DNA from: Streptosporangiaceae bacterium
GTDB taxonomy: Bacteria > Actinomycetota > Actinomycetes > Streptosporangiales > Streptosporangiaceae
Assembly: GCA_036495485.1 (NCBI GenBank)
Contig: DASXMU010000193.1
Location: 2,618-66,617 of the forward strand
Direction of reading: 5' to 3'
Length of the DNA: 64,000 nucleotides
Part shown: piece after piece, positions 1 to 18,197 of the stretch
Layout: each line of letters starts with the position of its first letter
Numbering within the stretch: the stretch's first letter is position 1
Notes under the pieces: model-generated
What the model was told of the DNA's origin: nothing
Seen by the model: the letters and a program-made list of their open reading frames with translations, nothing else
Databases searched by the model: none
Translations under genes and position numbers: made by a program

Positions 1-1661
1 GCCTTGGTGGCTGGATCGGCGAGGAGGGCCAGCCAGGGGACGTGCTGGTCGGTCTCGGTGAGCGGCAGGCCCGCGCGCCGGGCGGCTGCCTGGATGACGG
101 GCTTGACCTTGGCGATCCTGGCTCGCAACGGGGCCAGCGGGTCGGGCTGGGTGAGGAGCTCCAGGGCCACGCTGAGGGAGAGGGCCGAGGCGGCCAGCGG
201 GGGCAGGACCGCGCGGACGGCGGCGGCCAGGTCTGGGGAAGCCACCGCGAAGCCGATGCGGAGGCCGCCGCAGCAGTAGCCCTTGGAGATGCCGCGCAGC
301 ACGATCAGGCCGGGGGAGGTGTCGGTGAGGGGCGCGGCGCTGGCGCCGGGCGGGAGGTAGCAGGCACAGCTCTCGTCCACGACCAGGACGCCGCCGGCCT
401 GGGCAGTGGTTCTGGCCAGCTCGGCGATCATGGGCAGGGTCCAGTGGCGGCCGGTCAGGGCCGGCCGGTCGAGGACGGTGACCAGCGGGCGGAACGTGGC
501 TACGGCTGTGGCCGCAGCCGCCGGGTCGCTGAGCGGGGCGACGGCTACCTGGCTGCTGACCGCCGCCGCTGCTTCGGCTAGCTGGGGGTGGCCGGACGGG
601 TCGGTGAGGATCGTGCCGCCGTCGGCCAGCCTGGCCAGGCTGTGCAGGAGGCCGGTCACGCCTGCGCCGGCGGTGACCCGGTACGGGCTGAGCGACCAGG
701 CCAGGTTGGCGGCCAGGACCGGGGCGGAGCGGATGCCGCCGTAGGGGTCGGCCAGGTCGTAGCGGCGGGCCAGGGTGGGCAAGCCGAGTGGGTCCGAGGA
801 CAGGCGCGCCCACGCGGCGGTGACCGCTGGCTGGCTGAAGTACGCCTCGTCCGGAGCGGAGCGCAGGTCGATGGCTCCAGGCGGCGCCTGGGCGCGGTGA
901 CCCTCCAGGGCCGAGGTGATGCGCCGGGCTGGGGTGGCGACGAACTGGACGTACCTGGTGGCGATCGTCACGGGAGCACCGGCCTGGAAGTCGGCGTCCG
1001 TACGGGTGACGTCGAAGCCGGCCCGGGTCAGCAGGGCGCCGACCTCGGCCGGGGTGTAGAGGCGGACGTTGTCGGGGAGGACCGCCTCACTCCCGTCGGG
1101 GCGGGTCACCTGGACCTGGCCGCCGCTGCGGCCGGTCAGCGGGTCGTACTCGCGGCTGAACGTGAAGCTTGCGCCGCCGATCTGGGCCTGGGCGCTGGGC
1201 TGGTACATCCGGGTGATCGCCAGGATGCTCGAATGGTCGAGCACGAAGAGGCCGTCACCGGGCAGCAGGCGCCGGACGGTGCGCAGCATCCGGAGCTGGT
1301 CGGTGTCGGAGCCCCAGCCGAAGGCCTGCACGCAGATCGCGGCGTCGGCCGACGGGACGCCCCAGGCAGAAGAGCCGAGCAGATCGGCCTGGTGCAGCTC
1401 CAGCCGCACACCTGCGCCGGCTGCTGCTTGCGCGGCGCGGCGCAGTGCGTAGGCCGAGGCGTCCACGCCGGTTACCCGGAAGCCGCGCCGGGCCAGGGCG
1501 ACCGCGTGCCGGCCGGTGCCGCAGCCCAGGTCGAGGACACGACTGGCCCCGGCGAGCAGGCCGGCCAGGTAGGCGACCTCGGCTTCGGTTCGCTCCGGGG
1601 TGTACTCAGCGTCGGCGTACGCCCAGTAGTCGGCGGTGAAGTAGCTGTCGTACCACGCCAT
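1..1661 (-). CDS. Fusion protein: N-terminal class I SAM-dependent methyltransferase + C-terminal PLP-dependent aminotransferase (class I/II fold); 3' end lies beyond the left edge
   Basis: Absent from the ORF track because it runs off the window. My translation from ATG at 1661 reads MAWYDSYFTADYW...VLDLGCGTGRHAVALARRGFRVTGVD (SAM motif I), then later VVDESCACY...LRGISKGYCCGGLRIGFAV (PLP-lysine SK..GLR.G-type motif). No stop codon down to nt 1. The start lies 4 nt after the stop of the upstream gene (1666). Confidence 0.7.
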   Translation of the reverse strand, partial: MAWYDSYFTADYWAYADAEYTPERTEAEVAYLAGLLAGASRVLDLGCGTGRHAVALARRGFRVTGVDASAYALRRAAQAAAGAGVRLELHQADLLGSSAWGVPSADAAICVQAFGWGSDTDQLRMLRTVRRLLPGDGLFVLDHSSILAITRMYQPSAQAQIGGASFTFSREYDPLTGRSGGQVQVTRPDGSEAVLPDNVRLYTPAEVGALLTRAGFDVTRTDADFQAGAPVTIATRYVQFVATPARRITSALEGHRAQAPPGAIDLRSAPDEAYFSQPAVTAAWARLSSDPLGLPTLARRYDLADPYGGIRSAPVLAANLAWSLSPYRVTAGAGVTGLLHSLARLADGGTILTDPSGHPQLAEAAAAVSSQVAVAPLSDPAAAATAVATFRPLVTVLDRPALTGRHWTLPMIAELARTTAQAGGVLVVDESCACYLPPGASAAPLTDTSPGLIVLRGISKGYCCGGLRIGFAVASPDLAAAVRAVLPPLAASALSLSVALELLTQPDPLAPLRARIAKVKPVIQAAARRAGLPLTETDQHVPWLALLADPATK

Positions 1662-1665
1662 CCGG

Positions 1666-2886
1666 TCAGCTCACTGTGCTCAGCTCACGCCGGGCGAAGA
1701 AATCGCAGACATCGCACAGGTCAGGCGCGTTGGAGACGCCCTCCTGCAGCAGGTACAGGCCGCCGCAGCCACGGCAGGTCGCCTCCAGCAACGGGAACAT
1801 GTAGCGCTGCATGTTCGCGAACGAGGCGAACAGGTAGTAGTCGATACCAGGCCACAGGTCGAAGAGGTGATCGGTCATGGCGTAGGACATGGAGCGCTCG
1901 TCCGGGCCGGAGGTGAACCGGCCGGGCGTGCCCTGGCGGTTCAGCTCGGGTGCGACCAGCTCCAGGTAGAGCGTCAGCTCCTTTTTCGTGATCCGGTACA
2001 GCGGGAACACGTAACGCAGGCCGCCGATCTCCCGCACCGGGATGCCACCCATCCGGAAGCCGCTGGTGAACCAGGTCACCATGCTGGCCACCAGGTCGTC
2101 GGCGTTGAAGCCGAACGCGACCACGCCGGCACCGTGCGACTTGGCCTCCTCCTCCAGCATCCGGCGCAGCACCTGGTGGCCGATCACCATCGTCAGGTGG
2201 TTGCCCTCGCCGGCCACGACCTCGTTCATCGCGTCCACGAACTGGCCCTTGAGCTTGAAGACCCGCTCCACGTCGGCCGAGGTGACGATGACCTGGTGCA
2301 CGCCGAGCCGCTCGCCCGACTCGCGGGCCGCGGCGAACGTCGCCGGTTCCTCCCAGTCGGGCAGGCCGGTGATCGTCACCGCCGTCATGTCGACGGCGGG
2401 CAGCCGGTCCCTGGTCCGCTCCAGCAGGGTCAGGTACGCGACGCTGTCCCTGCCCCCGGACAGGCCGACGACGACCTTGTCGCCCGCCCGCATGACCTCG
2501 TGCGAGAGCATGCTCTGCACGAACGTCTCCTCGACGTACTTCACGAAGCCCACCGAGTCGAACTGCTCGGTCCGCCGCTCCAGCGAGCCCATGGTGTCGA
2601 ACAGCACGCTCTTGCAGTACACCGGGTCGGGTGCGCCGTACACCTGGCGCTTGGGCTTGCGCAGCACGTCCAGGTCGTAGTGCCGGACCTGGCGCACCTC
2701 GATCACGTCACCGGGCTCGACCACCGTGGTCTCCTCCGCGACGATCTTGCCGTTGCGCCAGGTCAGAACGGCGTTAACCGGGATGCCGTTGCGCAGCAGC
2801 ACGTCGGTCAGCGGCTGCCCGGCAGGCGCGGCGAGCTCCTCGGTGGTGCCAAGCTTGTTACGGAAGAACACAGAGGCCACGGTCAT
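1666..2886 (-). CDS. ThiS/MoaD-like beta-grasp domain fused to a PP-loop (adenine nucleotide alpha-hydrolase, TilS/TtuA-like) ATPase with a C-terminal CxxC...CxxC pair
   Basis: Track ORF 1666..3765 is a run-on. Plausible starts are ATG 2886 (MTVASVFFRNKLG) or GTG 2880. The N-terminal ~70 aa resembles ThiS (NGIPVNAVLTWRNGKIV..VEPGDVIEV). PP-loop VVVGLSGGRDS is present. The tail carries CRGC-x16-CDVC. Confidence 0.75.
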   Translation of the reverse strand: MTVASVFFRNKLGTTEELAAPAGQPLTDVLLRNGIPVNAVLTWRNGKIVAEETTVVEPGDVIEVRQVRHYDLDVLRKPKRQVYGAPDPVYCKSVLFDTMGSLERRTEQFDSVGFVKYVEETFVQSMLSHEVMRAGDKVVVGLSGGRDSVAYLTLLERTRDRLPAVDMTAVTITGLPDWEEPATFAAARESGERLGVHQVIVTSADVERVFKLKGQFVDAMNEVVAGEGNHLTMVIGHQVLRRMLEEEAKSHGAGVVAFGFNADDLVASMVTWFTSGFRMGGIPVREIGGLRYVFPLYRITKKELTLYLELVAPELNRQGTPGRFTSGPDERSMSYAMTDHLFDLWPGIDYYLFASFANMQRYMFPLLEATCRGCGGLYLLQEGVSNAPDLCDVCDFFARRELSTVS

Positions 2887-2935
2887 TCTCCTGTTCGGGC
2901 GGGACGCTGATAAGGCTGCTTGTGCACCGGCGGCG

Positions 2936-3859
2936 TCACGGCGGTCCGGCGGGGCCGGTGCCGCGGGGCCAGAATCGCCGTGAGGTGGCGAGGACCAGGC
3001 TCTCCCAGGCGTCGATGCCGGTGCCGAACGGAGCGAGCGCCGCCGCGGCCCGCTCCGGACTGGGCCCGGGTGACAGCGGGGTGAAGTCGGCCCTGAGCAG
3101 GTCCGCCAGCGGGTGGGCGCCCGGGAGCAGGGCAGCCAGCCGCTCGCCGCCGCCTGGCGCGCCGAACTCGGCCGGGCCCACCGCCAGCATGGCGCTCGCC
3201 GTCTTGCGCACCGGCCGCGGCAGGTCGTCCCAGGCTGCGGCGAGCGACCTGGCCCGCAGCCCGGCGAGCACGTCGTGGTAGCCGCGGTCCTCCCGGGGCG
3301 CGCCGAGCTGGAGCATGGCCAGCTGGGTGCGCAGCTCGTCCGGGTCGCCGCTGGCGAAGCCGCCGGGGCCGGCGAAAACAGCGCTCTCGGCGGCGGAGTC
3401 GGCCGCGGAGTCCGCGCTGTGCAGCAGCGAGAGCATGACGTTGATCGAGCCGAGGTCGCCGCGGATCGTGCCGGGGCCGGATCTGGCCGGATCGCTCGGG
3501 CCCTTGGCCTGCTTGAGCCGCTGGTGACCGGTCTGCCCGGCGCCCGCGCGCTGGTCGGCCAGCAGCAGCGCGACAGCCGGGCCGAAGGCGAACAACTGGT
3601 CGACCAGCCGGTAGCGGTAGGCCTGCCAGCTATGGGCGATGCTGACCTCGTGGAAGGCGTCGAGGCCGGCCGGACGGTGCCACAGCACCCGCCAGGCCAG
3701 CGGGGCGAACCCGGCGGTCTCGATCCGCTCGAGGACCGCCGGGCCGAGATGCCTGGCCACGGCATCGGGACCGATCAGCGCGAAGACGGTCCGGTCCCAG
3801 TCGGTATCCGCCACGGTCGGTCCCTTCGGGGTCATTGCCAGGCATGCCGTGCCCACCAC
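2936..3859 (-). CDS. Nucleoside-diphosphate-kinase-like domain protein with ~150-aa C-terminal extension
   Basis: TVFALIGPDAVARHLGPAVLERIETAGF ... GTIRGDLGSINVMLSLLHSADSAADSAAESAVF parallels the NDK core (..IKPD.., GTIRGDF, HGSDS..SA.RE...F), including the catalytic-His position. Start is uncertain (GTG 3859 or ATG 3835). Confidence 0.6.
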   Translation of the reverse strand: MVGTACLAMTPKGPTVADTDWDRTVFALIGPDAVARHLGPAVLERIETAGFAPLAWRVLWHRPAGLDAFHEVSIAHSWQAYRYRLVDQLFAFGPAVALLLADQRAGAGQTGHQRLKQAKGPSDPARSGPGTIRGDLGSINVMLSLLHSADSAADSAAESAVFAGPGGFASGDPDELRTQLAMLQLGAPREDRGYHDVLAGLRARSLAAAWDDLPRPVRKTASAMLAVGPAEFGAPGGGERLAALLPGAHPLADLLRADFTPLSPGPSPERAAAALAPFGTGIDAWESLVLATSRRFWPRGTGPAGPP

Positions 3860-4031
3860 GCCAGGGCCGGGAGCACGATGCGAGGCCTGGACACCAGGCC
3901 GGGCACGGCATGCAAGCTGGGGTGTTCCTACTTGCTCTTGTCGCCGGTGCCACGTGTGTTCTTGGCGATCGGGCGGCGCGCGCTCTGGCGGTGACGGTCC
4001 ACATTCCCTCCTTCCCGTCTGCGGGAGCGTT

Positions 4032-4066
4032 CGCCGGGTCAGCAGCAGCGAGCCGCTGACCCGGCG
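4032..4066 (-). other. Perfect 12-bp inverted repeat (stem-loop) just downstream of the nucleotidyltransferase stop, inside the operon
   Basis: cgccgggtcagc (4032-4043) / gctgacccggcg (4055-4066), with an 11-nt loop. No U-tract follows on the minus strand. Confidence 0.4.
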
Positions 4067-4087
4067 GTTACCTGCGGAAGCCGCACG

Positions 4088-5317
4088 TCATGATCCGTGC
4101 CCAGCTACCTGTTCCGCTTGATCTTCGGCTTGCGCACGCTGACTATGTGACGGTCCACCGGTACCTCCTTCCGGTGTCGAGAGCTCCTCCACCGCTTCCT
4201 CCGAGACCTCGTCACCAATGGTCAGCAGGAAGCGTCCCGCGGGAGTGTCCGCCCAGGCGAGCTTGCCGCGACGGCGCAGCACTGCCGTGCTCACCTCCGG
4301 CCGTGGGCCCTCCAGCGGCAGCCCGAAGGCGAGCAGCCCGGCCGGGACGGCCGTAGCCACCTGCAGCCTGCGCTGCACCGCGTCCCAGACCATCCCCTCG
4401 GCCCGGCTGGGGTTGCCCATCATGAGGCGCCGCTGCAGATGGCGCCCTGTGCCAGCCAGCGGCCTGGTGAAGAACCCGGCGCCGCGGGCCAGCCGGTGCG
4501 CCCGCACCCGTGCCATGGTCCACTGGCCGCCGGGCAGCTCCCGGAGGGAGCCGATGCCGGCCTTGGTGGTCAGCCGGACGAGTTCGGCGTACTCCACGGC
4601 CAGACCCAGCGTGACGACGGCCTCATGCAGCGCGTCGGGCTCTGTGCCGCGCAGAGCATCGTTCAGCAGCGCCGCGTCGAGCAGATCCCTGGCACGGAAC
4701 GGCTGCTCGTAGCGCTCGTGCAGCAGCATGAGCATGTTCTTAACCGCCGGGACACGCCATTGTTCCGGCAGCCGGAGTACCGGCGGGATGCCACCTTGAT
4801 TACCGAGCGTGTAATAGGTGGCCAGCTCAATGCCGTACGGGAGCTGATAGCGGTCCTCGTGTGAACGCCTGAGGCTGACCAGAACCTGCAGTGCGCCGCC
4901 CCAGCAGGAAAACGTCCCCGTGTCCAGTTCCCAGCCGTCCCCGGTCAGGAAACCGACGGCCCGCCACAGGGCAGTTTCCGACGAGGCGATGAAGTCGAGG
5001 TCGTTCATGTACCTGACGAGACCGGGTGGATAGAGCGCGGCCACCTCGAGGCCCTTGATCGTGGTCAGCCCGTCCACGGCCGCCATCAGGCCCGCCGCGA
5101 CCGCGCGGTAGTACTCGACGCGCGCCCGTGCGGCCGCTATCTCGTCGCGTAGCGCCGGGCTGAGCTCATCACCCCCGGCCCGCCAGGCCGAGAAGAGCGT
5201 GGCCGCGAAGGACGGCTGAGCCTTGCGCACCAGCGCCACGATCTCGGCGGGCCCATCGGCCGGCTCGCCCGAGCACGTGAGCAGCGCTTCAACCAGGCTG
5301 TCCGCGGTGAGATCCAT
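4088..5317 (-). CDS. Uncharacterised nucleotidyltransferase family protein (PF14907/NTP_transf_5-like)
   Basis: 409-aa ORF. KGLEVAALYPPGLVRYMNDLDFIASSETALWRAVGFLTGDGWE resembles the NTase motif (R...D[IL]D[LF][LI]) of the family often found in lasso/other RiPP loci. ATG at 5317. Confidence 0.65.
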   Translation of the reverse strand: MDLTADSLVEALLTCSGEPADGPAEIVALVRKAQPSFAATLFSAWRAGGDELSPALRDEIAAARARVEYYRAVAAGLMAAVDGLTTIKGLEVAALYPPGLVRYMNDLDFIASSETALWRAVGFLTGDGWELDTGTFSCWGGALQVLVSLRRSHEDRYQLPYGIELATYYTLGNQGGIPPVLRLPEQWRVPAVKNMLMLLHERYEQPFRARDLLDAALLNDALRGTEPDALHEAVVTLGLAVEYAELVRLTTKAGIGSLRELPGGQWTMARVRAHRLARGAGFFTRPLAGTGRHLQRRLMMGNPSRAEGMVWDAVQRRLQVATAVPAGLLAFGLPLEGPRPEVSTAVLRRRGKLAWADTPAGRFLLTIGDEVSEEAVEELSTPEGGTGGPSHSQRAQAEDQAEQVAGHGS

Positions 5318-5340
5318 GGCGCCCCCCAGCGGATGCGGCG

Positions 5341-5394
5341 GCAGATAATCAAAGCGACGCCGAGGCGAGCCGGCCGGCCCCCACGGCGTCGCTT
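5341..5394 (-). terminator. Intrinsic-terminator/attenuator-like hairpin directly after the 48-aa ORF
   Basis: 11-bp stem aagcgacgccg (5352-5362) / cggcgtcgctt (5384-5394) with a GC-rich 21-nt loop. On the minus strand it is followed by TTTGATTATCT. Confidence 0.45.
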
Positions 5395-5400
5395 CGCCGC

Positions 5401-5547
5401 CTAGTAGTTAGGTACGCAGTCCGTGCAGGTCGTACGGAACTTCATGACCTGGACAGCCTCGCGCTGAGCGAGCATCTTCTCGACCAGGGTGGGGGTGAGC
5501 AGGACCGGGGCAACAGTGGTGTCGGTCCGAGCGATCGTCTCTTCCAT
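5401..5547 (-). CDS. Unannotated 48-aa peptide, candidate RiPP precursor: MEETIARTDTTVAPVLLTPTLVEKMLAQREAVQVMKFRTTCTDCVPNY
   Basis: ATG 5547 to TAG 5401, translated by hand. A GGGAAGGG purine tract lies ~10 nt upstream. 39/48 codons end in G/C. Promoter-like hexamers lie upstream and a hairpin downstream. It is co-directional with the four enzyme genes. Confidence 0.55.
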   Translation of the reverse strand: MEETIARTDTTVAPVLLTPTLVEKMLAQREAVQVMKFRTTCTDCVPNY

Positions 5548-5583
5548 AAGCCAAACCCTTCCCGTGGAACGCAAGTTGCCGTC

Positions 5584-5612
5584 AGCGTAAGGAGAAGTTT
5601 GGATAGGGTCAA
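5584..5612 (-). promoter_or_regulatory. Sigma70/HrdB-like promoter candidate for the peptide operon
   Basis: The minus strand reads TTGACC (5612-5607), a 17-nt spacer, then TACGCT (5589-5584). The -10 hexamer ends ~36 nt upstream of the ATG, in a locally AT-richer intergenic region. Confidence 0.45.
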
Positions 5613-5820
5613 TAGCTTCGTGGCTGTTTGTTCTAAATGCCTGCTATCACTCTGTTAAGCAACGTTTTCCGGTGTGGGAAGCCACACTTCCGGCCCTATT
5701 CGAACGGGTCCTGGCGGCTCGGGGTTCAGCCGGGCAAGGTTCGGAAGATGTGGCGTTTAGGTAAGCACATGGGGTCGCGTGGGCACCGGTTGGTGATTTT
5801 CTTTCATTCCAAAAGAAAAT

Positions 5821-5919
5821 GATCATGCTACGGATGAGCGGGATGGGACGGATCCAGCTCGCGCGAGTGCATTTTACCTGATCACACTACGGGTGAGCGG
5901 GACCGGACGGATCTAGCTC
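5821..5919. repeat. Imperfect 40-bp direct repeat duplicating the 3' end (last codons + stop) of the gene ending at 5887
   Basis: gatcatgctacggatgagcgggatgggacggatccagctc (5821-5860) versus gatcacactacgggtgagcgggaccggacggatctagctc (5880-5919): 34/40 identical. Confidence 0.85.
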
Positions 5920-7143
5920 CCAGCGGGTGCCGTCCACGTCATCGAGCAGCCGCAGGCCGGACGCGGCGAGCGCGTCGCGGATGGCGTCCGCCGCCTGGTA
6001 GCTGCCGTCACCGCGCAGCGTCCCGCGCAGGGTGATCAGGCGCTCGATGGCGGGACCGAGGCGCTCGCGGGGGTCGGCCAGGCCGCCGGTGGCAGCACGG
6101 CCGAGCCGGGTGACCAGGCTGCGCAGCACGGCCCTGGCCTGCTCGGTGCCCTGGTCCTCCTCGGTGTCGGCGGCCCACTCGTGGATGGCGGCCTCCAGGT
6201 CGAGGATCGCCGCCGTCATGCCCGCGGCGTCCCGGCAGCGCTCGGCGTCGTCGAAGCGGCGCTGCGCGGCGGCGGTGAGGTCGGGCAGCGCGTCCGGCGG
6301 CGGCTGGGCCTCTGGCGGCGCGGCGGCCGGGCTGGGGGGTGCAGCTACCGCCGGGGTGCCGCTGTTCACCAGGTCCTGGAGCTGGCCGAGGGCGATTTCC
6401 GTGCCCGCGGGCAGGACTGTGCTGACGCCCTGGCGGCGGACCGTGACGCCGCCGCGACCGGATATCCCGACGGTCCCGGCGGCCAGGTCGAAGACGGCCA
6501 CCGTGTGCTCGTCCACACCGAGCACGGCGGCCCCGGCGGGCAGCTCGGCCTCCAGCCTGGCCAGCCGCCGCTCGCCCAGATAGCAGAAGCGGGTGTCGTG
6601 GTTGCCGCCCTCGGCGTTGTCGTAGTGCGGGATGACCGTGACGTTGAGCCCGATGGCGGACATCAGGTCGAGGCCGTCCAGCCAGTGCGGCGGCTCGCCG
6701 ACCTTGTAGATCTCATAGACGGGCAGCGCGGTGACGCCGAGCGTGACGGCGGCCGCCGACGCGAACACGGTCACGCCCTGGCCCGCCAGGACCCGGTCGC
6801 GCAGCGCCCCGGCGACCGGGCCGCCGGTCCACTGCGCCAGGGCATAGGTCGGGCTGCCAGGTCCGGAGAACACCCAGTCGGCACCTAGCAGCGTCCCGGC
6901 GCTGTCGCCGGTACCGGGGAGGACGGTGACCTCCAGCCCGACGCTGCGGGCGAAGTACGCCTTGGCCCGGGCGGAGATGTCGTCGGCGTTCTCCTGGAAC
7001 CGGTACGGGGTCTCCAGCAGGACCGCGTCGGGCTGCTTGGTCCCCAGCCGGGCGGCGAGCGCGCGATGCGCGGTGACCATGGTCGGGCTGGTCTCCCCCG
7101 ACCCCATGATGGCCAGAATCCGGCATCCGGCTGACCCGCCCAT
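5887..7143 (-). CDS. Cyanophycinase/peptidase S51-like (class I glutamine amidotransferase-like fold) protein with a tail resembling the cysteinyl-tRNA synthetase C-terminus
   Basis: CRILAIMGSGETSPTM... at the N-terminus. The C-terminus ADAIRDALAASGLRLLDDVDGTRWE resembles the CysRS C-terminal motif as I recall it. ATG 7143 is preferred (GGGGGGAG 4 nt upstream) over the track start at 7161. Confidence 0.5.
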   Translation of the reverse strand: MGGSAGCRILAIMGSGETSPTMVTAHRALAARLGTKQPDAVLLETPYRFQENADDISARAKAYFARSVGLEVTVLPGTGDSAGTLLGADWVFSGPGSPTYALAQWTGGPVAGALRDRVLAGQGVTVFASAAAVTLGVTALPVYEIYKVGEPPHWLDGLDLMSAIGLNVTVIPHYDNAEGGNHDTRFCYLGERRLARLEAELPAGAAVLGVDEHTVAVFDLAAGTVGISGRGGVTVRRQGVSTVLPAGTEIALGQLQDLVNSGTPAVAAPPSPAAAPPEAQPPPDALPDLTAAAQRRFDDAERCRDAAGMTAAILDLEAAIHEWAADTEEDQGTEQARAVLRSLVTRLGRAATGGLADPRERLGPAIERLITLRGTLRGDGSYQAADAIRDALAASGLRLLDDVDGTRWELDPSGPAHP

Positions 7144-7165
7144 TCGGCTCCCCCCCTGCACGGCG

Positions 7166-9833: not shown

Positions 9834-11264
9834 CTAGCTCTTCCTGTTGAAGGGGCGGAGGTAAGGCGCCGGGATGTAGCTCAGGAAGCCCGGCGGGGTC
9901 GCGACCGGGCCGTTGGGGCCCGAGAAGATGTTGAACTTCGGGCCGAGCGCCGCGGCCTTTGTGTTCATCTGCGCCGGGGTGAGCGCGCCGTCGTTCCACT
10001 GGCCGGTCTTGAGCCGGTTCAGCAGCGTCTTCGCCGCCGTGATGGTCTCGGCCGGGGTGAAGGCGCAGTGCCCGGCCCGGTCCACGAAGATCTGCCGCAG
10101 CAGCGCCGACTTGCCAGCCTTGGCGACAGCGCCGGAGTAGGCCGACTCGTTCTCCGGGACGACCAGTCCGTCACCGATGGTGTGCATGGTGAGCACCGGG
10201 ATGGTCAGGTTGCCGTCGTAGGTGATGTGCTTCCTGAGGTAGGTCGACGCCGCTGGGTCGGCCGAGACGCGCGGGGCCGCGGCCAGCGTGGCCAGGTCCG
10301 CGTCCAGGCTCAGGCCTGCCTTGTGGTACAGGTCGAGAACCTCGTTGAGGCTGGGCGACTTCAGCAGGTCCTTGAAGTAGTTGACACCGGTGTTCCAGGA
10401 CGGGTTGCCGCCCGCCAGGGCCTCGAGCTGCGCCCGGAGCGCGAACGCGAACGGGTAGTCGACCTGGGAGGCCCACAGGTACTGATTGGCCTCCTGGGCT
10501 GCGTAGGCCGTGGGCCCGGGCTGCGCCGACAGCGGGGTGAACCAGCCGGGGGTGTCGGAGAGTGCCGAACTCAGCGCGAGCCTGGCCCGGCCGGCCGCGG
10601 TCTTCTGCGCGGCCTGAGCGGCCTGCAGCGCCGAGGTCAGGTTGGTCCCCGGGTTGGTGATGTTCACGACCTGCACGGACGGGTCGATGAGCTGCTGGAA
10701 CGCGAACGCCGCGTCGAGCGCGGTATTCCAGGTCGCTATGCCGCCCGACACCACGCCGCACATGGGCAGCGCGGCGTTGAACCGGCTCGGGTACTGCTGG
10801 GCCAGGCCCGCCGTGATCATGCCACCCAGCGAATGGCCCCAGGCGATGGTCGTCGTTGGCTTCTTGCCGATGCGCTGGTTGAAGACGTTGAGGGTGCGAA
10901 TCTGGTCGAGCAGCGCCGACTGGATCGCCCAGCCGGTGATCGCGTAGGACGAGCCCGCCAGTGCGTAGCCGTGGCTGAGCATCCAGCCGCCGGTGACCGG
11001 GTCGCCGACGTCCGTCGCCGGGTTGTTCGTGCCGGGGACCACGTAACCGTGGCTGTAGAGGAACAGCGTCCCGTTCCAGTTCGCCGGGACCTGGATCAGG
11101 TACGTCGCGCCGTCCTTGAACGTCCCGGTGAGTTTCGTGACGGCGCTGGCGCCACCGCCAGCGCCGGCGGCCGTGCTGGCCTGCGCGGGCAAGCCCGGGC
11201 TGAGCAAAGCCGCAAGCACCGCGACCGGAAGCAGCAAACGCAAGGCTCTGTTGATCTGTTTCAC
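9834..11264 (-). CDS. Secreted alpha/beta-hydrolase
   Basis: Signal peptide VKQINRALRLLLPVAVLAALLSPGLPAQA begins at GTG 11264, with GGAG 7 nt upstream. Nucleophile elbow GHSLGG. The track start at 11363 is probably too long. Confidence 0.7.
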   Translation of the reverse strand: MKQINRALRLLLPVAVLAALLSPGLPAQASTAAGAGGGASAVTKLTGTFKDGATYLIQVPANWNGTLFLYSHGYVVPGTNNPATDVGDPVTGGWMLSHGYALAGSSYAITGWAIQSALLDQIRTLNVFNQRIGKKPTTTIAWGHSLGGMITAGLAQQYPSRFNAALPMCGVVSGGIATWNTALDAAFAFQQLIDPSVQVVNITNPGTNLTSALQAAQAAQKTAAGRARLALSSALSDTPGWFTPLSAQPGPTAYAAQEANQYLWASQVDYPFAFALRAQLEALAGGNPSWNTGVNYFKDLLKSPSLNEVLDLYHKAGLSLDADLATLAAAPRVSADPAASTYLRKHITYDGNLTIPVLTMHTIGDGLVVPENESAYSGAVAKAGKSALLRQIFVDRAGHCAFTPAETITAAKTLLNRLKTGQWNDGALTPAQMNTKAAALGPKFNIFSGPNGPVATPPGFLSYIPAPYLRPFNRKS

Positions 11265-12582: not shown

Positions 12583-13341
12583 CTACCCCTGCCCGTCCGG
12601 GACCTGAGCGGGTGACGGGGCCGCGTCCGGGGTGGTCAGCGTCGTGCCCGCCGGGTGGCCGCGGCGTGGCCCGTCGGCGATGATCCAGGCCTGCTGACGG
12701 CCGTGCACCTGCCAGCTGCGCCCGGTTCCTGACAGGTCCACGATGGCGGTGTCCTCGTCGATGCCGATCACCGTGGTGCCCGCGGGCGGGTGCAGCAGCG
12801 CCCGGGTGAGCAGGTCGGGCACCCAGCCCAGCATCCGGTCGAAGTGCGGCAGCACGCGCAGGTGCGGCACGACGCCGAGGCCGGGATCCGGATCGCGGCG
12901 CAGCGCACGCATCGCCGGGACCCAGCTGGTCAGCGCCATCGCCCCGGCCGAGCAGCCGGCCAGCGACGCACCCGACCGCCAGGCGGCGAGCACCGCTTCC
13001 CACAGCCGGGTTCCGCGCAGGGTCTGCGCCAGGTACATGGGGCTGCCGCCGGACAGGTAGACCAGCCCAGCCCCCTCGACCAGGGCGGCCAGCTCAGGTG
13101 AGCCGGCCTCGTCGCGGTCCCGGGCGACGACCGGCACCTGCTGCACGCCCAGCCGGTCCGCCTGGGCCGCGCCAAGGTCCAGCCAGCGGCGCAGGCTCTG
13201 TTCACCCTCGGGCGCGGCGGCCGTGGGAATCTGGACGTAGCGGGGCGCGCGACCGCGCAGCAGCAGGCCTTCCACGCTGGTCATGACGGGCAGGTACTCT
13301 CCGCTGCCCACCAGGGCCAGCGGCCCGGGCACAGACGGCAT
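12583..13341 (-). CDS. Peptidase S51 (dipeptidase E/cyanophycinase-like) family protein
   Basis: LALVGSGEY..., VYLSGGSP, GCSAGAM nucleophile region. Confidence 0.75.
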   Translation of the reverse strand: MPSVPGPLALVGSGEYLPVMTSVEGLLLRGRAPRYVQIPTAAAPEGEQSLRRWLDLGAAQADRLGVQQVPVVARDRDEAGSPELAALVEGAGLVYLSGGSPMYLAQTLRGTRLWEAVLAAWRSGASLAGCSAGAMALTSWVPAMRALRRDPDPGLGVVPHLRVLPHFDRMLGWVPDLLTRALLHPPAGTTVIGIDEDTAIVDLSGTGRSWQVHGRQQAWIIADGPRRGHPAGTTLTTPDAAPSPAQVPDGQG

Positions 13342-13395
13342 CCGACCATCATGCCAGGCGGTCAGGGTTCCCCGCGCTGGGGTTCCCGCCTCCTC

Positions 13396-14400
13396 TCAGT
13401 GGCCGCGGACGGCGCGGAGGGACTCGCGGAGGGAGCCCATGGTGGCCAGGACGGCGGAGGGCTCGTAGCCGCAGTGGGCCATGCAGTTCGAGCAGCGCGG
13501 GTCCTTGCCGCGGCCATAGGCGTCCCAGTCGGTGGTCTCGATCAGCTCCTTGTAGGTCTTCACGTAGCCGTCGGCCATCAGGTAGCACGGCTTCTGCCAG
13601 CCGAGCAGCGAGTAGGACGGGATGCCCCACGCGGTGCAGCCGAAGTCGGTCTTGCCCTCCAGGAAGTCGAGGAACAGCGGCGAGTGGTTCAGCCGCCACC
13701 GCTTCCTGTTGCCGCCGCCGAACGCTTTCCTGAACAGTTCCCTGGTCTCGGTCACGCCGAGGAAGTGATCCTGGTCCGGCGCCCGGTCGTAGGCATAGGC
13801 CGGCGAGATCTGCATCTGGTCGATGGCGAGGTCGTCGTTGAGGTAGTTGAGCACGTCGATGACGGCCTGCGGAGAGTCGTTGGTGAAGAACGTGGTGTTC
13901 GTGTTGACCGTGAACCCCCGGCTCTTGGCCTCCTTGATCGCCGCGACCGCCTCATCGAACACGCCCTCCTTGCAGACCGACTCGTCGTGCCGCTCGCGCA
14001 GCCCGTCGATGTGCACCACCCAGGCGAAGTAGGGGGACGGCTTGAACTTGTCCAGCTTCTTGGGCATGAGCAGCGCGTTCGTGCACAGGAAGACGAACTT
14101 CTTCTTGGCGATGAGCTGGCGGACGATCTCGTCGATCTGCGGGTGCATGAGCGGCTCGCCGCCGGCGATGGACACCATCGGCGCGCCCGACTCCTCGATC
14201 GCGGCGATGGCCTGCTCGACCGGCATGCGCTGCTTCAGGAGCGTATGCGGCTGCTGGATCTTGCCGCAGCCCGCGCACTTCAGGTTGCAGGCGAACAGCG
14301 GCTCGAGCTCGACGAGCAGCGGGAACTTGGTATTGCGGGTCAGCTTCTGGCGTATCAGGTAAGAGCCGATCCGCAGACTCTGGCGCAACGGCATGCTCAT
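13396..14400 (-). CDS. hpnH: Adenosyl-hopene transferase, radical SAM
   Basis: LVELEPLFACNLKCAGCGK (CxxxCxxC) and the highly conserved HpnH-like C-terminus (CTAWGIPSYSLLGWQKPCY...CSNCMAHCGYE). Hopanoid cluster context. Confidence 0.95.
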   Translation of the reverse strand: MSMPLRQSLRIGSYLIRQKLTRNTKFPLLVELEPLFACNLKCAGCGKIQQPHTLLKQRMPVEQAIAAIEESGAPMVSIAGGEPLMHPQIDEIVRQLIAKKKFVFLCTNALLMPKKLDKFKPSPYFAWVVHIDGLRERHDESVCKEGVFDEAVAAIKEAKSRGFTVNTNTTFFTNDSPQAVIDVLNYLNDDLAIDQMQISPAYAYDRAPDQDHFLGVTETRELFRKAFGGGNRKRWRLNHSPLFLDFLEGKTDFGCTAWGIPSYSLLGWQKPCYLMADGYVKTYKELIETTDWDAYGRGKDPRCSNCMAHCGYEPSAVLATMGSLRESLRAVRGH

Positions 14401-14477
14401 TAGTCCCGTACCTCCTCAGGAGGGCTCTGGTTTCCCCGGTTAATTTCCCGGCGCGCGGATTTAGTCACGGTGCTTGT

Positions 14478-16037
14478 TCAGTCGTGCCTGACCTCTCGGG
14501 GCAGGCCGAACCGGATCGATTCGGTGGTGATCACACGTTCGCTGGTCCGCACGGGCCCGAGCCCGCGCAGCGCGTCGATGATCTCCTCGACCACCACGGG
14601 CGGCGCCGAGGCGCCCGCGGTCAGCCCGATGGTGGACACGCCCTCTAGCCAGCTGAGCTGGATGTCCTCCGGGCCGTCGATCAGGTGGGCAGGCGTGCCT
14701 GCCCGCTCGGCGCGCTCGACAAGCCGCACCGAGTTGGACGAGTTGGCCGAACCGGCCACCAGCACCAGGCCGGCCTGCGCCGCCACCGCACGGATGGCGT
14801 TCTGCCGGTTGGTGGTCGCGTAGCAGATGTCGTCGCTGCGCGGGCCGCGGGCGCCGGGGAACCTGCTGGTGATGGCCTCGGCGAGCCCGCTGGCCTCGTC
14901 GGTGGCCAGCGTGGTCTGCATCAGGTAGGCGATCTTGTCCTGCTGTGGCGGGATCAGCTTCGCCACATCATCCTCGGTCTCGATGAGCACGGTGGACTGC
15001 GGCACCTCGCCGAGCGTGCCCTCGACCTCCTCGTGCCCCGCGTGCCCGATCAGCGCGACCAGGTACCCGTCGTTCGCGAACCGCCGGACCTCCGCGTGCA
15101 CTTTGGAGACCAGCGGGCAGGTCGCGTCCACGGTGGCCAGCCCACGGTCCGCCGCCTCCTGCCGCACCGCCGGCGCGACGCCGTGCGCGGAGAACACCAC
15201 GGTCGCCCCAGCCGGCACCTCGTCGAGCTCGTCGACGAAAATGGCGCCGCGCTGCTCCAGGTCGCTGACCACCCGGGTGTTGTGCACGATCTGCTTGCGC
15301 ACGTAGACCGGGGGTCCCTGCCGGTCGAGCACCCGCTCGACAACCTCGATGGCCCGCTCCACACCCGCGCAGAACGACCGCGGCCCGGCCAGCAGCACCT
15401 GCCGCTCCCCGGTCGCCGCCGCCCAGCGCTCCAGCACCGCCCCGGCCTCGCGCAGCGACCGCAGCGCGGCCAGCCCACCGGTCACGGTCCGGGGGTGCAG
15501 CAGCGTCCGGCCAGGGATGTCCGAGATCGCCCTGATCACAACGATCGGCTTTCCATCAGCCGCCGCCGCGAGCTGCGCGGACTCCATGTCGGCCGCCAGC
15601 GCGCCGCCAGCCGCGAGCCGCTCCCGGTCCGCACCGCTGACCAGGTGGTCAACGCTGACGATCCGCCCGGTCCGCACCCGCAGCCCGGCCCGCCGCAGTT
15701 CCCCGGCAAGCAACGGCGCCGACGCACAGCGCACCCCGCTGTCCGCGCCGTCGGTGACGATCTCGGTGCCGACGACGATGTCCCCCGGCCGCAGGCTCGG
15801 GTCCAGCCCGGCGCCCACTCCGGCGATGATTATTTTCCCAAAGAAATTTCCGGACGCTGCCCCAGCGAACCTCTCGGCAGCACGGCGGGCCCGGCTGGGC
15901 CCATAACCGGTGCGCATGACCTGGCCGCCGTCACCGCCAGCCCGGCGCATCCCACGCCGCAGCGCCCGCGCCTCAACCCCCAGCGGCGCACACACCAGCA
16001 ACGGCCCCAGCCCACCATCGGCCACCTGGCTACTCAC
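14478..16037 (-). CDS. ispH: Single ORF fusing an HpnG-like nucleosidase/phosphorylase domain to 4-hydroxy-3-methylbut-2-enyl diphosphate reductase (IspH)
   Basis: The N-terminal ~200 aa carries PLGVEARAL...IIAGVGAGL...[12 protein letters not shown]...IRAISD (PNP_UDP_1-like). It then runs without a stop into [19 protein letters not shown]...[10 protein letters not shown]...GSANSSNS (IspH). Confidence 0.85.
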
Positions 16038-16068
16038 GCGCCCCCCTCACCCAAAGGCGGATGTCCTC

Positions 16069-16110
16069 GTTGTAGCAACGTCGACCAAAGAGTGTCGACG
16101 TTGCCACAAC
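16069..16110. other. 17-bp near-perfect inverted repeat between shc and hpnG::ispH
   Basis: gttgtagcaacgtcgac (16069-16085), an 8-nt loop, then gtcgacgttgccacaac (16094-16110). One mismatch. Confidence 0.6.
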
Positions 16111-16133
16111 GACCACATTCACCACCTGGCCCG

Positions 16134-18197
16134 TCATGCCGCACCCTCCACGGCCCGCAGGTAGCGGCCGATGGCGCTGATCGGGAAGACCAGCCGGTAG
16201 AGGTGGTAGTTGATGTAGAAGTCGCCGGGGAAGCCGGTGCCGGTGTACTGAGGCTCGTCCCAGGTTCCGTCGGCTCGCTGGCTGGCCGCCAGCCAGCTAA
16301 CCCCGCGCTCGATGGCCGGGCTCTCCGCCGCCAGGGGGCCCTCGGCCGCGAGCAGGGCGAGCAGCGCCCAGGCGGTCTGCGAAGCGGTGGACTCGCCCTG
16401 CCCGGCCAGCGCCGGGTCGTCGTAGGACCGCAGATCCTCACCCCAGCCGCCGTCGGCGTTCTGGTGACCCTCCAGCCACGCCACGGCCCGCCGGATGCAC
16501 GGCTTGCCCGGCTTCACCCCGGCGTCGATCAGCGCCGGCACCACGGCCCCGGTGCCGTAGACGTAGTTGGCGCCCCACCGCCCGAACCAGGACCCGTCCG
16601 CCTCCTGCGCCTTCAGCAGCCAGGTGACCCCACGGCGAACCGGCTGCGACCCGGCCAGTCCCTCGTGCGCAAACGCCTCCACGATGTGCGCCGTCACGTC
16701 CGCCGTCGGCGGGTCGATCACCGCACCGAAGTCGCAGAACGGCAGCTTGGTCACCAGTTGCCGGTCATTGTCGGCGTCGAACGCCCCCCAGCCCCCGTCC
16801 TTCGACTGCATCCCGGCCAGCCAGTGCACGGCCCGGCCGATGGCGTCCTGCGCCCGCTGCGGCGTCGGCCCGCCCACCGGCCAGCGCTTGCGCAGCCCAA
16901 GCAGCACCTCGGCCGTATCGTCGGTATCGGGGTACCCGTCGTTATCGAACTCGAAGGCCCACCCGCCAGCCTCGGTCCCCGGCCGTTTCACCTGCCAGTC
17001 CCCCGGCCCCGGCACCTCCTCATCCAGCACCCAGGCCGCCGCCCGCGCCATCGCCGGATCGTCACCCGCAACCCCCGCATCCCCCAGCGCAACCATCGCC
17101 AGCACGGTGTCCCACACCGGCGACTGGCAGGCCTCCAGCCGCCGGGTCGGCCCCTCCGGCGAGTCCTCGATGATCGTGAACCGCTTGAGCCCCTCCAGCC
17201 CGCGAGCCATCACCGGGTGATCCAGCCGGTACCCCAGCAGGTTCAGCGCGATCAGCGAGTACACCCAGGGCGGCTGAATCCCACCCCAGCAGCCATCCCG
17301 CTCCTGCCGGGCAATCGCCCATTCCGCACACCGCCGCAGCGCCGCCCGCCTGACGGCTGCCGCAGCCCCCCTCCCCCAGCGCCCCATAGCACTATCGGTG
17401 CTATGGCCGAGCGTGGCGGCGATGGTCGGGCGAGGGCCGTTCGGCAGCGCCGGCCGGCCATCGACCGAGCGTCGGCGCCCCGCCCCCAGCACCCTTTTCT
17501 CATAGACACGCAGTGCCTTGTCCACCCCGTTGAAGAAGACCGACCAGGGATCCCGGTCCTTGCCAGCCGGCGTCACCCCGGTCTTCAGCTCGTCCAGCGA
17601 GAACGGCAGCGGCCGGGACGGCTTCAGCGCCCCCACGATCGCCAGCGGCACGATCGTCTGCCGCGCCCAGTACCCCCAGTCGTAGACATTCAGCGGGAAC
17701 CAGGCCGGGAGGTAGATCAGCTCCGGCGGGATCACCGGCAGCGTGTCCCAGGACCACTGCCCGAGCAGCGCCAGCCAGATCCGGGTGAACACCCGGGACG
17801 CCCCGATCCCGCCGCGCTCTACGATCCAGTGGGCCGCCGTCGTCATGTGCGGCAGCTCCGGGGTGTCCCCGGCCAGCCGCAGCGCTACGTAGGACTCGAT
17901 CGTGGTGGACAGGTCGCCTGGCCCGCCGTAGAAGTTGGCCCAGGTGCCGTCGTCACGCTGCTTGGACCGGATCCAGCGGGCCGCCGCCGCGCTCTCGGCC
18001 TCGGTCCTGATGCCGAGGAACTGGCGCAGCATCAGGTCTTCGGCGTCCATGGTGACGTTGGTCTCGAGCTCACCTTGCCACCAGCCCGCCTCGTGCTGGA
18101 GCCCGATCAGGTGATCGCGCGCACGATTGAGCGTCAGCCGGGCGGCCTCGGGGGTGCCAGCAGCTCCGGCCTGCGGCCCAGAATGCGTCAGCGTCAT
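16134..18197 (-). CDS. shc: Squalene-hopene cyclase
   Basis: Track ORF 16134..18698 is over-extended. ATG 18197 (MTLTHSG) lies 8 nt after the stop of the upstream gene. It has a DTDDTA (DxDD) motif, repeated QW-type motifs, and GGWGEDLRSY. Confidence 0.95.
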   Translation of the reverse strand: MTLTHSGPQAGAAGTPEAARLTLNRARDHLIGLQHEAGWWQGELETNVTMDAEDLMLRQFLGIRTEAESAAAARWIRSKQRDDGTWANFYGGPGDLSTTIESYVALRLAGDTPELPHMTTAAHWIVERGGIGASRVFTRIWLALLGQWSWDTLPVIPPELIYLPAWFPLNVYDWGYWARQTIVPLAIVGALKPSRPLPFSLDELKTGVTPAGKDRDPWSVFFNGVDKALRVYEKRVLGAGRRRSVDGRPALPNGPRPTIAATLGHSTDSAMGRWGRGAAAAVRRAALRRCAEWAIARQERDGCWGGIQPPWVYSLIALNLLGYRLDHPVMARGLEGLKRFTIIEDSPEGPTRRLEACQSPVWDTVLAMVALGDAGVAGDDPAMARAAAWVLDEEVPGPGDWQVKRPGTEAGGWAFEFDNDGYPDTDDTAEVLLGLRKRWPVGGPTPQRAQDAIGRAVHWLAGMQSKDGGWGAFDADNDRQLVTKLPFCDFGAVIDPPTADVTAHIVEAFAHEGLAGSQPVRRGVTWLLKAQEADGSWFGRWGANYVYGTGAVVPALIDAGVKPGKPCIRRAVAWLEGHQNADGGWGEDLRSYDDPALAGQGESTASQTAWALLALLAAEGPLAAESPAIERGVSWLAASQRADGTWDEPQYTGTGFPGDFYINYHLYRLVFPISAIGRYLRAVEGAA

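Follow-up and report, generated by a model that had tools for sequence, protein, structure and literature searches.

Several described systems share features with the locus considered here. In daptides, a ribosomal precursor is modified by a PLP aminotransferase followed by an N-methyltransferase; an invariant C-terminal Thr, a DUF-RRE protein (DapB), an alcohol-dehydrogenase-type oxidative decarboxylase, a class III aminotransferase (PF00202) and an RRE-site-2 protease are also needed, and the cores are variable (PMC10036551). The tRNA thiolases TtuA, NcsA and TtcA and the thioamide synthetases CtaC (closthioamide; PMC6772006) and YcfA share a PP-loop ATP site, and TtuA works with a small beta-grasp partner. 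In lasso peptides, the class-defining cyclase is an adenine-nucleotide alpha-hydrolase of the Asn-synthetase type that adenylates an Asp/Glu side chain. Microcin C-type peptide-nucleotide antibiotics combine a small ribosomal peptide with nucleotide-handling enzymes, what appears to be a methyltransferase-like plus PLP pair (MccD/MccE), an MFS exporter and a critical Asn near the C-terminus. Finally, the peptides giving rise to cofactors (PqqA for PQQ, MftA for mycofactocin) and the pearlin scaffold TglA are very short, with C-terminal regions conserved across wide phylogenetic distances.

We analyzed a window of 64,000 nucleotides from a Streptosporangiaceae bacterium (GCA_036495485.1, contig DASXMU010000193.1, positions 2,618 to 66,617), in which a sequence-only reading had noted a 48-codon open reading frame (ORF) and interpreted it as a precursor peptide gene with its own promoter-like hexamers and a post-ORF hairpin. 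The ORF was confirmed on the minus strand, from ATG 5547..5545 to TAG 5403..5401 (gene 5401..5547), and encodes MEETIARTDTTVAPVLLTPTLVEKMLAQREAVQVMKFRTTCTDCVPNY, exactly as originally translated. Thirty-nine of 48 codons end in G/C, compared with 28/48 for the first and 21/48 for the second codon position. The gene had been considered hidden due to a length cutoff; however, it is annotated in the source record as a hypothetical protein (HEY2576904.1, VGI74_11400).

An ORF of this length is not significant on its own in 70% GC DNA, as there are 130 ORFs of at least 30 aa in 16 kb, and hence the case is carried by conservation. We identified 85 close homologues, and 60 cluster representatives in a profile search; the reading frame is conserved without frame-breaking indels in more than 100 sequences. 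Non-synonymous changes are far rarer than synonymous ones, with dN/dS of 0.25 overall, 0.36 in the 22-codon leader block and 0.06 in the tail. Thus, the ORF is a protein-coding gene under purifying selection.

The peptide has three zones, namely, a variable N-terminus, a moderately conserved segment PV(L/M)LTPxLVEKML, and a near-invariant C-terminal tail [KR]FR[ST]TC[TS]DC[VL]PN-X, where X is Y, F, L, M, or W. In the middle segment, P14–L26 (PVLLTPTLVEKML; 5470..5508, minus strand), positions P14, L17, P19, and M25 are invariant in the alignment, and V15, L21, V22, and E23 are conserved at 90% or more; this is the presumed enzyme-recognition segment, its function being inferred. The 13-residue tail, K36–Y48 (KFRTTCTDCVPNY; 5404..5442, minus strand), starts at K36 rather than at M35 as initially suggested, and is the presumed site of modification. 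In 51 distinct DNA sequences, its residues F, R, T, T, C, T, D, C, P, and N show no amino acid change while their codons vary synonymously, and distant members reduce the invariant pattern to [KR]FR[ST].x.DC.PN. The tail is far more conserved than the leader, which is the reverse of most antibiotic RiPPs and fits a cofactor-like product or a recycled scaffold.

The expression signals were assessed mostly by comparison of related loci. The purine tract GGGAAGGG at 5563..5556, 8 nt before the ATG, is a ribosome-binding site, and a GGAAAGG/GGAAGG tract occupies the same position in related loci. Farther upstream, a −35-like hexamer TTGACC (5612..5607) is followed after a 17-nt spacer by a −10-like hexamer TACGCT (5589..5584), all on the minus strand. 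An E. coli-style consensus scan does not call this pair a promoter, because the −10 hexamer matches only three out of six positions, although it seems to fit the TAnnnT form of actinomycete −10 boxes. At the same time, both hexamers are invariant in 10 related loci whose surrounding intergenic DNA cannot be aligned (for the −35-like one, as TATTGAC in the window and in related loci L007, L009–L013, and L015–L017), and thus form a promoter-like phylogenetic footprint.

A GC-rich hairpin follows the stop codon (5337..5401, minus strand). Its main stem AAGCGACGCCG/CGGCGTCGCTT (5395..5384 with 5362..5351) is followed by GATTATCT, and the 74-nt fold, including an inner stem and an outer GGCGGC/GCCGCC stem (5401..5337), has the minimum free energy of −47.3 kcal/mol (z −4.3), with none of 200 shuffles folding as well. 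The stem is sequence-conserved with loop indels in 10 close relatives; being sequence-identical, it is uninformative for covariation analysis. Hairpins of unrelated sequence occur at the same position, directly after the stop codon, in nearly all lineages, including Streptomyces, Nonomuraea, Lentzea and others. The hairpin is not a canonical intrinsic terminator, as it has no U-tract, only UUU that lies inside the stem and is followed by GAUUAUCU, and the terminator scan found nothing; hence its role as an attenuator is inferred. An Rfam search of 5200..6000 yielded no match.

The gene is tightly linked to a neighboring PP-loop gene. Of 49 loci with the PP-loop gene, 45 carry the peptide and the other four are on contigs cut before the expected position, so that in 45 out of 45 evaluable genomes the peptide lies within 10 kb. 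Look-ups in the reverse direction, starting from the peptide, also find the cluster. The gene order differs between lineages, and the peptide gene changes its position but stays inside the cluster, while the partner set recurs; some loci carry two tandem copies of the peptide gene that differ in the last residue. Recurrent partners are the PP-loop enzyme, a methyltransferase–PLP fusion, an NDK-like protein, a PF14907-like nucleotidyltransferase, a phosphodiesterase-family protein, an M28/DUF4910 protein, FemAB-like proteins and exporters, with an M16 (PqqF-like) peptidase in some clusters. In low-GC bacteria, a minimal set consists of the peptide, the PP-loop enzyme, the methyltransferase/PLP protein, the phosphodiesterase, and the M28 protein. 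The upstream gene 5887..7161 is not conserved next to the cluster and has no Pfam or PDB match, and no other copies of cluster genes were found elsewhere in the 64-kb window.

In the window, the first enzyme gene (4088..5317, minus strand) encodes a 409-aa PF14907-like protein with a predicted nucleotidyltransferase fold. The Pfam hit to PF14907 (E 0.0024) is below the cutoff, a PDB sequence search gave only spurious nanobody hits, and the AF2 model (pLDDT 88.6) has only weak matches to nucleotidyltransferase folds (4ok0 and MenT4, E about 0.01); however, K88-G89 and D106-x-D108 are invariant in 20 homologues. By a rough gene call, this gene is present in 37 out of 54 loci. The adjacent 699-aa "PP-loop" ORF (1666..3765) proved to be a frame chimera of two genes, and the plus-strand ORFs 42..581 and 588..1916 are shadow ORFs. 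The first of the two genes (2936..3814, minus strand) encodes a 292-aa NDK-like protein with an N-terminal NDK domain (PF00334, E 1e-11) and an unknown C-terminal half; the catalytic-type His appears, by eye, to be retained in LLHSADS, and the gene is present in 46 out of 54 loci.

The second gene (1666..2886, minus strand) encodes the 406-aa partner found in all evaluable loci, comprising a beta-grasp (ThiS-like) domain, a PP-loop ATP-pyrophosphatase and a C-terminal CxxC..CxxC zinc ribbon. It has sequence hits to NcsA (6scy) and TtuA and weak NCBIfam hits to NcsA, TtcA, and TilS. According to the AF2 model (pLDDT 86.6), its closest structural matches in Foldseek are TtuA and NcsA (E 1e-14, TM 0.65–0.70), then TilS, NadE, and YcfA. 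The SGGRDS motif is invariant, and homologues are 52–93% identical from actinomycetes to low-GC bacteria. A further gene (1..1661, minus strand), cut by the window start, encodes a fusion of a methyltransferase and a PLP protein of the class I/II aminotransferase fold (PF00155), and is present in 45 out of 54 loci. In the full-length homologue, the PLP half is closest to CobD threonine-phosphate decarboxylase and to HisC, and the methyltransferase half to N-methyltransferases, including the daptide methyltransferase (NCBIfam, E 3e-16, below the cutoff).

Comparison with the systems introduced above shows differences in each case. The fusion of the PLP and methyltransferase halves suggests the daptide logic of making an amine and then methylating it, but here the C-terminal residue is Y/F/L/M/W, the PLP domain is CobD/HisC-like, neither PF00465 nor DapB is in the conserved set, and the core is frozen. 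The PP-loop enzyme shares the predicted fold and the ATP site with TtuA and its relatives, and carries a fused beta-grasp domain; however, the three cysteines holding the [4Fe-4S] cluster are absent, as the NPCSFC and PCP stretches of NcsA align to HLTM and TPG, and the only invariant cysteines are the four in the zinc ribbon. Sulfur insertion by the known mechanism is therefore unlikely, and the genetic partner is a peptide rather than a tRNA. If the leader were cut before K36, Asp would be residue 8 of the core, the position used for lasso rings, yet no Asn-synthetase-type cyclase (PF00733), transglutaminase-like leader protease or PqqD-type RRE is among the recurrent families, apart from one weak PF00733 hit on a distant PP-loop homologue, and residue −2 is Val/Ile, not Thr. 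Differently from microcin C, there is no MccB/ThiF-type adenylyltransferase in the conserved set, the Asn is penultimate rather than terminal, and the peptide is 47–57 aa with a long conserved region, against 7 aa. The conserved set also contains no radical-SAM PqqE/MftC, PqqD, or LanB-like PEARL, while exporters and SARP-type regulators point to a secreted secondary metabolite. Similarly, no LanB/C/M/KC/L or YcaO families, expected for lanthipeptides, thiopeptides, and LAPs, appear in the window genes or in the recurrent neighborhood families.

Taking this into account, and in the absence of product, mass-shift or transcript data, we consider it likely that the ORF encodes the dedicated substrate (precursor) peptide of a conserved, uncharacterized peptide-modification cluster, in agreement with the sequence-only reading. 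In the inferred scheme, the peptide is transcribed from TTGACC-17-TACGCT, and the hairpin acts as a leaky terminator or a 3'-end stabilizer, so that the short peptide mRNA would outnumber the read-through mRNA for the downstream genes. The middle segment would dock the peptide on the enzymes, although no RRE-like match appeared for the nucleotidyltransferase and PP-loop proteins, the two enzymes modelled. The tail would be the modified part, with the PP-loop enzyme most likely using ATP to adenylate a carboxyl or carbonyl group in the invariant D-C-V-P-N-X stretch for attack by a non-sulfide nucleophile, which could be the invariant Cys thiol, an amine or an amide nitrogen; which residue is activated is a guess. 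The PLP/N-methyltransferase fusion would then make and methylate an amine, the phosphodiesterase-family, NDK-like and nucleotidyltransferase proteins would handle a phosphate- or nucleotide-bearing intermediate, M16 and M28-like proteins would trim the peptide, and an MFS or ABC pump would export the product. It should be noted that the M28/DUF4910 family includes members thought not to be peptidases (PMC4000134).

A less likely but possible alternative is that the peptide is a scaffold (carrier), its tail being a handle recognized by several enzymes that transform only the C-terminal residue, or a unit attached to it, into a small molecule then released by a hydrolase, as in pearlin or amino-group-carrier logic. 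Indeed, 12 tail positions are essentially frozen from actinomycetes to 37% GC bacteria while only the last residue varies, the HisC/CobD-like family of the PLP half includes aromatic-amino-acid aminotransferases, an M28-type hydrolase is in the core set, FemAB-like proteins, which elsewhere use aminoacyl-tRNA, are frequent, and one cluster whose peptide ends in Leu encodes a LeuRS-like paralogue. On the other hand, neither a LanB-like PEARL enzyme nor an ATP-grasp LysX-type ligase is in the conserved set, the last residue is genetically encoded, so that each peptide could be used only once unless something re-adds it, a PLP enzyme cannot act on a residue whose amine is in a peptide bond, and the LeuRS link is a single case.

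It is also conceivable, though doubtful, that the product is a small accessory protein, such as a CxxC metal- or sulfur-relay partner of the PP-loop enzyme, analogous to TtuB with TtuA, or a regulator or chaperone of the cluster. The closest structural relatives of the PP-loop enzyme work with a small carrier protein (TtuA–TtuB, 5gha), the tail carries a CxxC motif, and extreme conservation is usual for interaction partners. However, the peptide has no beta-grasp fold-sized domain and no Gly-Gly end, the PP-loop enzyme carries its own fused beta-grasp domain and lacks the Fe-S site needed for TtuA-type sulfur transfer, the first Cys is replaced by Gly or Ala in two distant members, and the separate promoter-like footprint, the hairpin and the tandem copies are precursor-like. 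A chance ORF or a conserved non-coding RNA element, suggested by the frequency of such ORFs and the local GC content of 0.55, lower than in neighboring genes, is refuted by the codon-level conservation and dN/dS of 0.06–0.36, and is further contradicted by the intact frame across phyla and the lack of an Rfam match.

More speculatively, and with low likelihood, the peptide could define a new RiPP-type class, whose class-defining enzyme would be a tRNA-thiolase-fold PP-loop protein that has lost its Fe-S cluster and been re-purposed to activate a peptide. The exported product would carry a phosphate-linked N-methylated amino-alcohol or a nucleotide, which would explain the CobD-like PLP domain, the N-methyltransferase, the NDK-like protein, the nucleotidyltransferase, and the phosphodiesterase-family proteins. 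The freely varying last residue could set target specificity, one possibility being a Trojan-horse mimic of an aminoacyl-adenylate, which would fit the LeuRS paralogue in the cluster whose peptide ends in Leu.

Although the gene is listed as a hypothetical protein, our searches found no Pfam or NCBIfam family for the peptide and no paper describing it or its cluster. Yet it is present in at least 45 species-level genomes of Actinomycetota, including Streptomyces, Streptacidiphilus, Nonomuraea, Streptosporangium, Sphaerisporangium, Lentzea, Solwaraspora, and many soil MAGs, as well as in low-GC bacteria, and several carriers are cultured type strains. A 13-residue tail frozen over that distance is unusual for a secreted peptide and implies either a very constrained product or recognition by many enzymes. 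No known RiPP class combines an Fe-S-less PP-loop enzyme of the predicted TtuA fold fused to a beta-grasp domain, an NDK-like protein, a PF14907-type nucleotidyltransferase, a phosphodiesterase-family protein, a CobD-like PLP/N-methyltransferase fusion, and an M28/DUF4910 protein. Characterization of this system is likely to reveal new peptide chemistry.

The ORF is located on the minus strand, with the ATG at 5547..5545 and the TAG at 5403..5401, and translates to MEETIARTDTTVAPVLLTPTLVEKMLAQREAVQVMKFRTTCTDCVPNY. Thirty-nine of its 48 codons end in G/C (GC1 28, GC2 21), the purine tract GGGAAGGG lies at 5563..5556, 8 nt before the ATG, and the hexamers TTGACC (5612..5607) and TACGCT (5589..5584) are separated by 17 nt. 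The ORF sits in an island of 0.54-0.55 GC between regions of 0.7 GC or more. After the stop codon, a stem AAGCGACGCCG/CGGCGTCGCTT with an inner and an outer stem folds at -47.3 kcal/mol (z -4.3), none of 200 shuffled sequences folding as well, and is followed by GATTATCT. All features described in the sequence-only reading are present. However, an ORF of this size is not remarkable by itself in this DNA, which contains 130 ORFs of at least 30 aa in 16 kb, and simple scans call neither a promoter nor a terminator; hence the case rests on comparison with other genomes.

This comparison shows that the ORF is a real gene. A search of 5.8 billion proteins yielded 85 homologues of 47-75 aa, all labelled “hypothetical,” and a profile search of 1.84 billion cluster representatives yielded 60 more widely spread members. 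All share a C-terminal tail KFRTTCTDC[VL]PN[YFLMW]; distant members relax the pattern to [KR]FR[ST].x.DC.PN, e.g., KFRTNCSDCVPNL, RFRSTCTDCVPNY, and KFRTTC[IV]DCMPNY, and two sequences have Gly or Ala in place of the first Cys. Across 51 distinct DNA sequences from the retrieved loci, the F, R, T, T, C, T, D, C, P, and N codons show synonymous variants (ACC/ACG/ACT/ACA, CGC/CGT/CGG, CCG/CCT/CCC, and others), but no amino acid change. NG86 dN/dS is 0.25 for the 35-codon gap-free block, 0.36 for the leader part, and 0.06 for the tail. The middle segment PV(L/M)LTPxLVEKML is conserved as well, while the N-terminus is free to vary. The sequence-only reading regarded the ORF as hidden, being shorter than the cutoff of its ORF track, but it was hidden only there: the exact peptide is already present in GenBank as HEY2576904.1 (locus tag VGI74_11400, “hypothetical protein”), from a Streptosporangiaceae MAG contig of 83,950 bp.

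The gene model downstream of the peptide was revised using a GC3 frame plot, according to which the 699-aa “PP-loop ORF” (1666..3765, minus strand) is a chimera of two genes, with the GC3 periodicity switching frame near 2900. The real minus-strand genes downstream of the peptide are those encoding a 409-aa protein with a weak PF14907 hit (4088..5317), an NDK-like protein (2936..3814; PF00334, E 1e-11), a 406-aa beta-grasp + PP-loop protein (1666..2886), and a fusion of a methyltransferase and a class I/II aminotransferase-fold protein (1..1661), the latter being cut by the window edge. The plus-strand ORFs 42..581 and 588..1916 are shadows of this last gene. The rest of the cluster is not found elsewhere in the window and so lies outside it. 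The 273-nt gap between the nucleotidyltransferase-like and NDK-like genes (3815..4087) is occupied by an M16 peptidase gene in many relatives (e.g., loci L007, L009, and L012), whereas the window and some other loci (L010, L011, L017, and L020) lack it.

The upstream genes, encoding a 424-aa orphan, DUF5996, a luciferase-like protein, and then hopanoid-type proteins, do not belong to the cluster. The 424-aa gene (5887..7161, minus strand), directly upstream of the putative peptide promoter, has no Pfam or PDB match, its last 80 residues resemble the C-terminus of cysteinyl-tRNA synthetase only weakly, and it is not found next to the cluster in other genomes. Farther away, at 12583..16037, three neighboring genes, namely, an S51 peptidase-like gene, a radical-SAM + DUF3463 gene (13396..14400), and a fused PNP_UDP_1 + LytB gene (14478..16037), look like part of a hopanoid or isoprenoid gene group, unrelated to the peptide.

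In order to assess the linkage, we aligned five PP-loop homologues and scanned one genome per species of GTDB. This yielded 49 loci from Streptosporangiaceae, Nonomuraea, Sphaerisporangium, Acrocarpospora, Solwaraspora, Lentzea/Pseudonocardiaceae, Streptomyces, Streptacidiphilus, Streptantibioticus, Actinocrinis, and a Mycobacteriales MAG, of which 45 contain the peptide ORF within 10 kb. The four exceptions are contigs of 1.3 kb and 3.8 kb, and two contigs that end before the position where the peptide lies in their lineage. Conversely, every peptide looked up on a long enough contig sits in the same cluster, including loci of 37-39% GC from an unrelated organism.

Clustering of all neighbors revealed recurrent families. 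Out of 54 loci, the PP-loop protein was found in 49, the NDK-like protein in 46, the methyltransferase/PLP fusion in 45, the PF01663 phosphodiesterase-family protein in 43, the M28/DUF4910 protein (+PA domain) in 41, the PF14907-like protein in 37, two families of FemAB-like proteins in 32 and 20, respectively, MFS in 23, M16 in 15, and an ABC transporter in 12. The low-GC loci keep only the peptide, PP-loop, methyltransferase/PLP, a second aminotransferase, phosphodiesterase, and M28, and this set is the core. In one of them (L061), NadA (quinolinate synthase), a second phosphodiesterase-family gene, and an L-aspartate-oxidase-like gene (15167-17852) directly follow the M28/DUF4910 gene, and may or may not belong to the cluster.

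The peptide gene is the first gene before the PF14907-like gene in the lineage of the window, sits next to the phosphodiesterase gene in Nonomuraea and Streptosporangium, and lies just before the phosphodiesterase/PP-loop genes in Streptomyces; hence, the association has survived rearrangement. Three metagenome loci (L003, at 10001-10534, L004, and L005) carry two tandem copies of the peptide gene with the same tail but different last residues (-PNL and -PNF), each copy being followed by its own hairpin. A Streptosporangiaceae MAG contig of 169 kb (L012) carries three paralogues of the PF14907-like gene and a second PP-loop copy around a single peptide gene. In Nonomuraea (L028, L029, L035-L037), and in this genus only, the cluster is flanked by a tryptophan-halogenase gene, a 639-aa radical-SAM gene, a LuxR-type regulator, and a large SARP/AAA regulator.

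The expression signals are supported by the same kind of comparison. In ten related loci, the upstream intergenic DNA cannot be aligned, except for TATTGAC, a spacer, TACGCT, and the GGAAAGG ribosome-binding site, which constitutes a phylogenetic footprint of the hexamers noted in the sequence-only reading. These ten loci also keep the hairpin stem, while the loop changes length. Streptomyces, Nonomuraea, Lentzea, Sphaerisporangium, and others have a different GC-rich hairpin at the same place, directly after the stop codon (mean z -2.0, with 25 of 51 loci below -2). Since the hairpin lacks a U-tract, its role in partial termination or 3'-end protection is an inference, but this is the standard arrangement for precursor genes.

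The PP-loop protein matches NcsA (6scy) and TtuA by sequence, and its AF2 model (pLDDT 86.6) matches TtuA and NcsA at E about 1e-14 with TM 0.65-0.70, followed by TilS, GMP and NAD synthetases, and YcfA. Residues 1-66 form a beta-grasp (ThiS-like) domain, in agreement with the COG-based names assigned by JGI. The SGGRDS motif and a C-terminal CxxC..CxxC ribbon are invariant, whereas the three cysteines holding the [4Fe-4S] cluster in NcsA, TtuA, TtcA, and CtaC (PMC6772006 for CtaC) are absent. It is therefore a predicted adenylating enzyme that probably does not insert sulfide by the known route. The 409-aa protein encoded next to the peptide keeps a KG...DxD nucleotidyltransferase motif, but its confident model (pLDDT 88.6) gives only weak NTase-fold matches. 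In the fusion protein, the PLP half is closest to CobD threonine-phosphate decarboxylase (E 3e-27) and to HisC, both of which bind phosphorylated substrates, and the methyltransferase half is closest to N-methyltransferases, including the daptide and cypemycin enzymes.

Taken together, these data show a translated, selected peptide with its own conserved upstream footprint and downstream hairpin, in obligate linkage with the enzyme set. We infer that the peptide is the substrate of these enzymes and that its middle segment is the docking site. The PP-loop enzyme likely adenylates a carboxyl or carbonyl, at a residue that cannot be specified, in the invariant D-C-V-P-N-X stretch for attack by a non-sulfide nucleophile, and the PLP/methyltransferase fusion likely creates and methylates an amine. 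By the same inference, the NDK-like, nucleotidyltransferase, and phosphodiesterase-family proteins handle a phosphate- or nucleotide-bearing intermediate, M16 and M28-like proteins trim the peptide, and a pump exports the product.

The main rival explanation is a scaffold peptide on which only the last residue is transformed. It is favored by the frozen tail with a variable last residue, the HisC-like PLP domain, and one LeuRS paralogue in a Leu-ending cluster. The latter is a distant cluster on a 16.6-kb contig (JGI 3300050821), whose peptide ends in -PNL and which encodes a 978-aa LeuRS-like class I aminoacyl-tRNA synthetase, a TauD-family dioxygenase, and an inositol-monophosphatase-family protein, all three between the aminotransferases and the phosphodiesterase gene.

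Literature searches and two family libraries yielded no description of this system. It does not satisfy the defining features of daptides, lasso peptides, lanthipeptides, YcaO classes, microcin C-type systems, or Fe-S PP-loop sulfurtransferases. While RiPP-type precursors as such are known, we regard this peptide as likely being a RiPP-type precursor with an unprecedented enzyme set.
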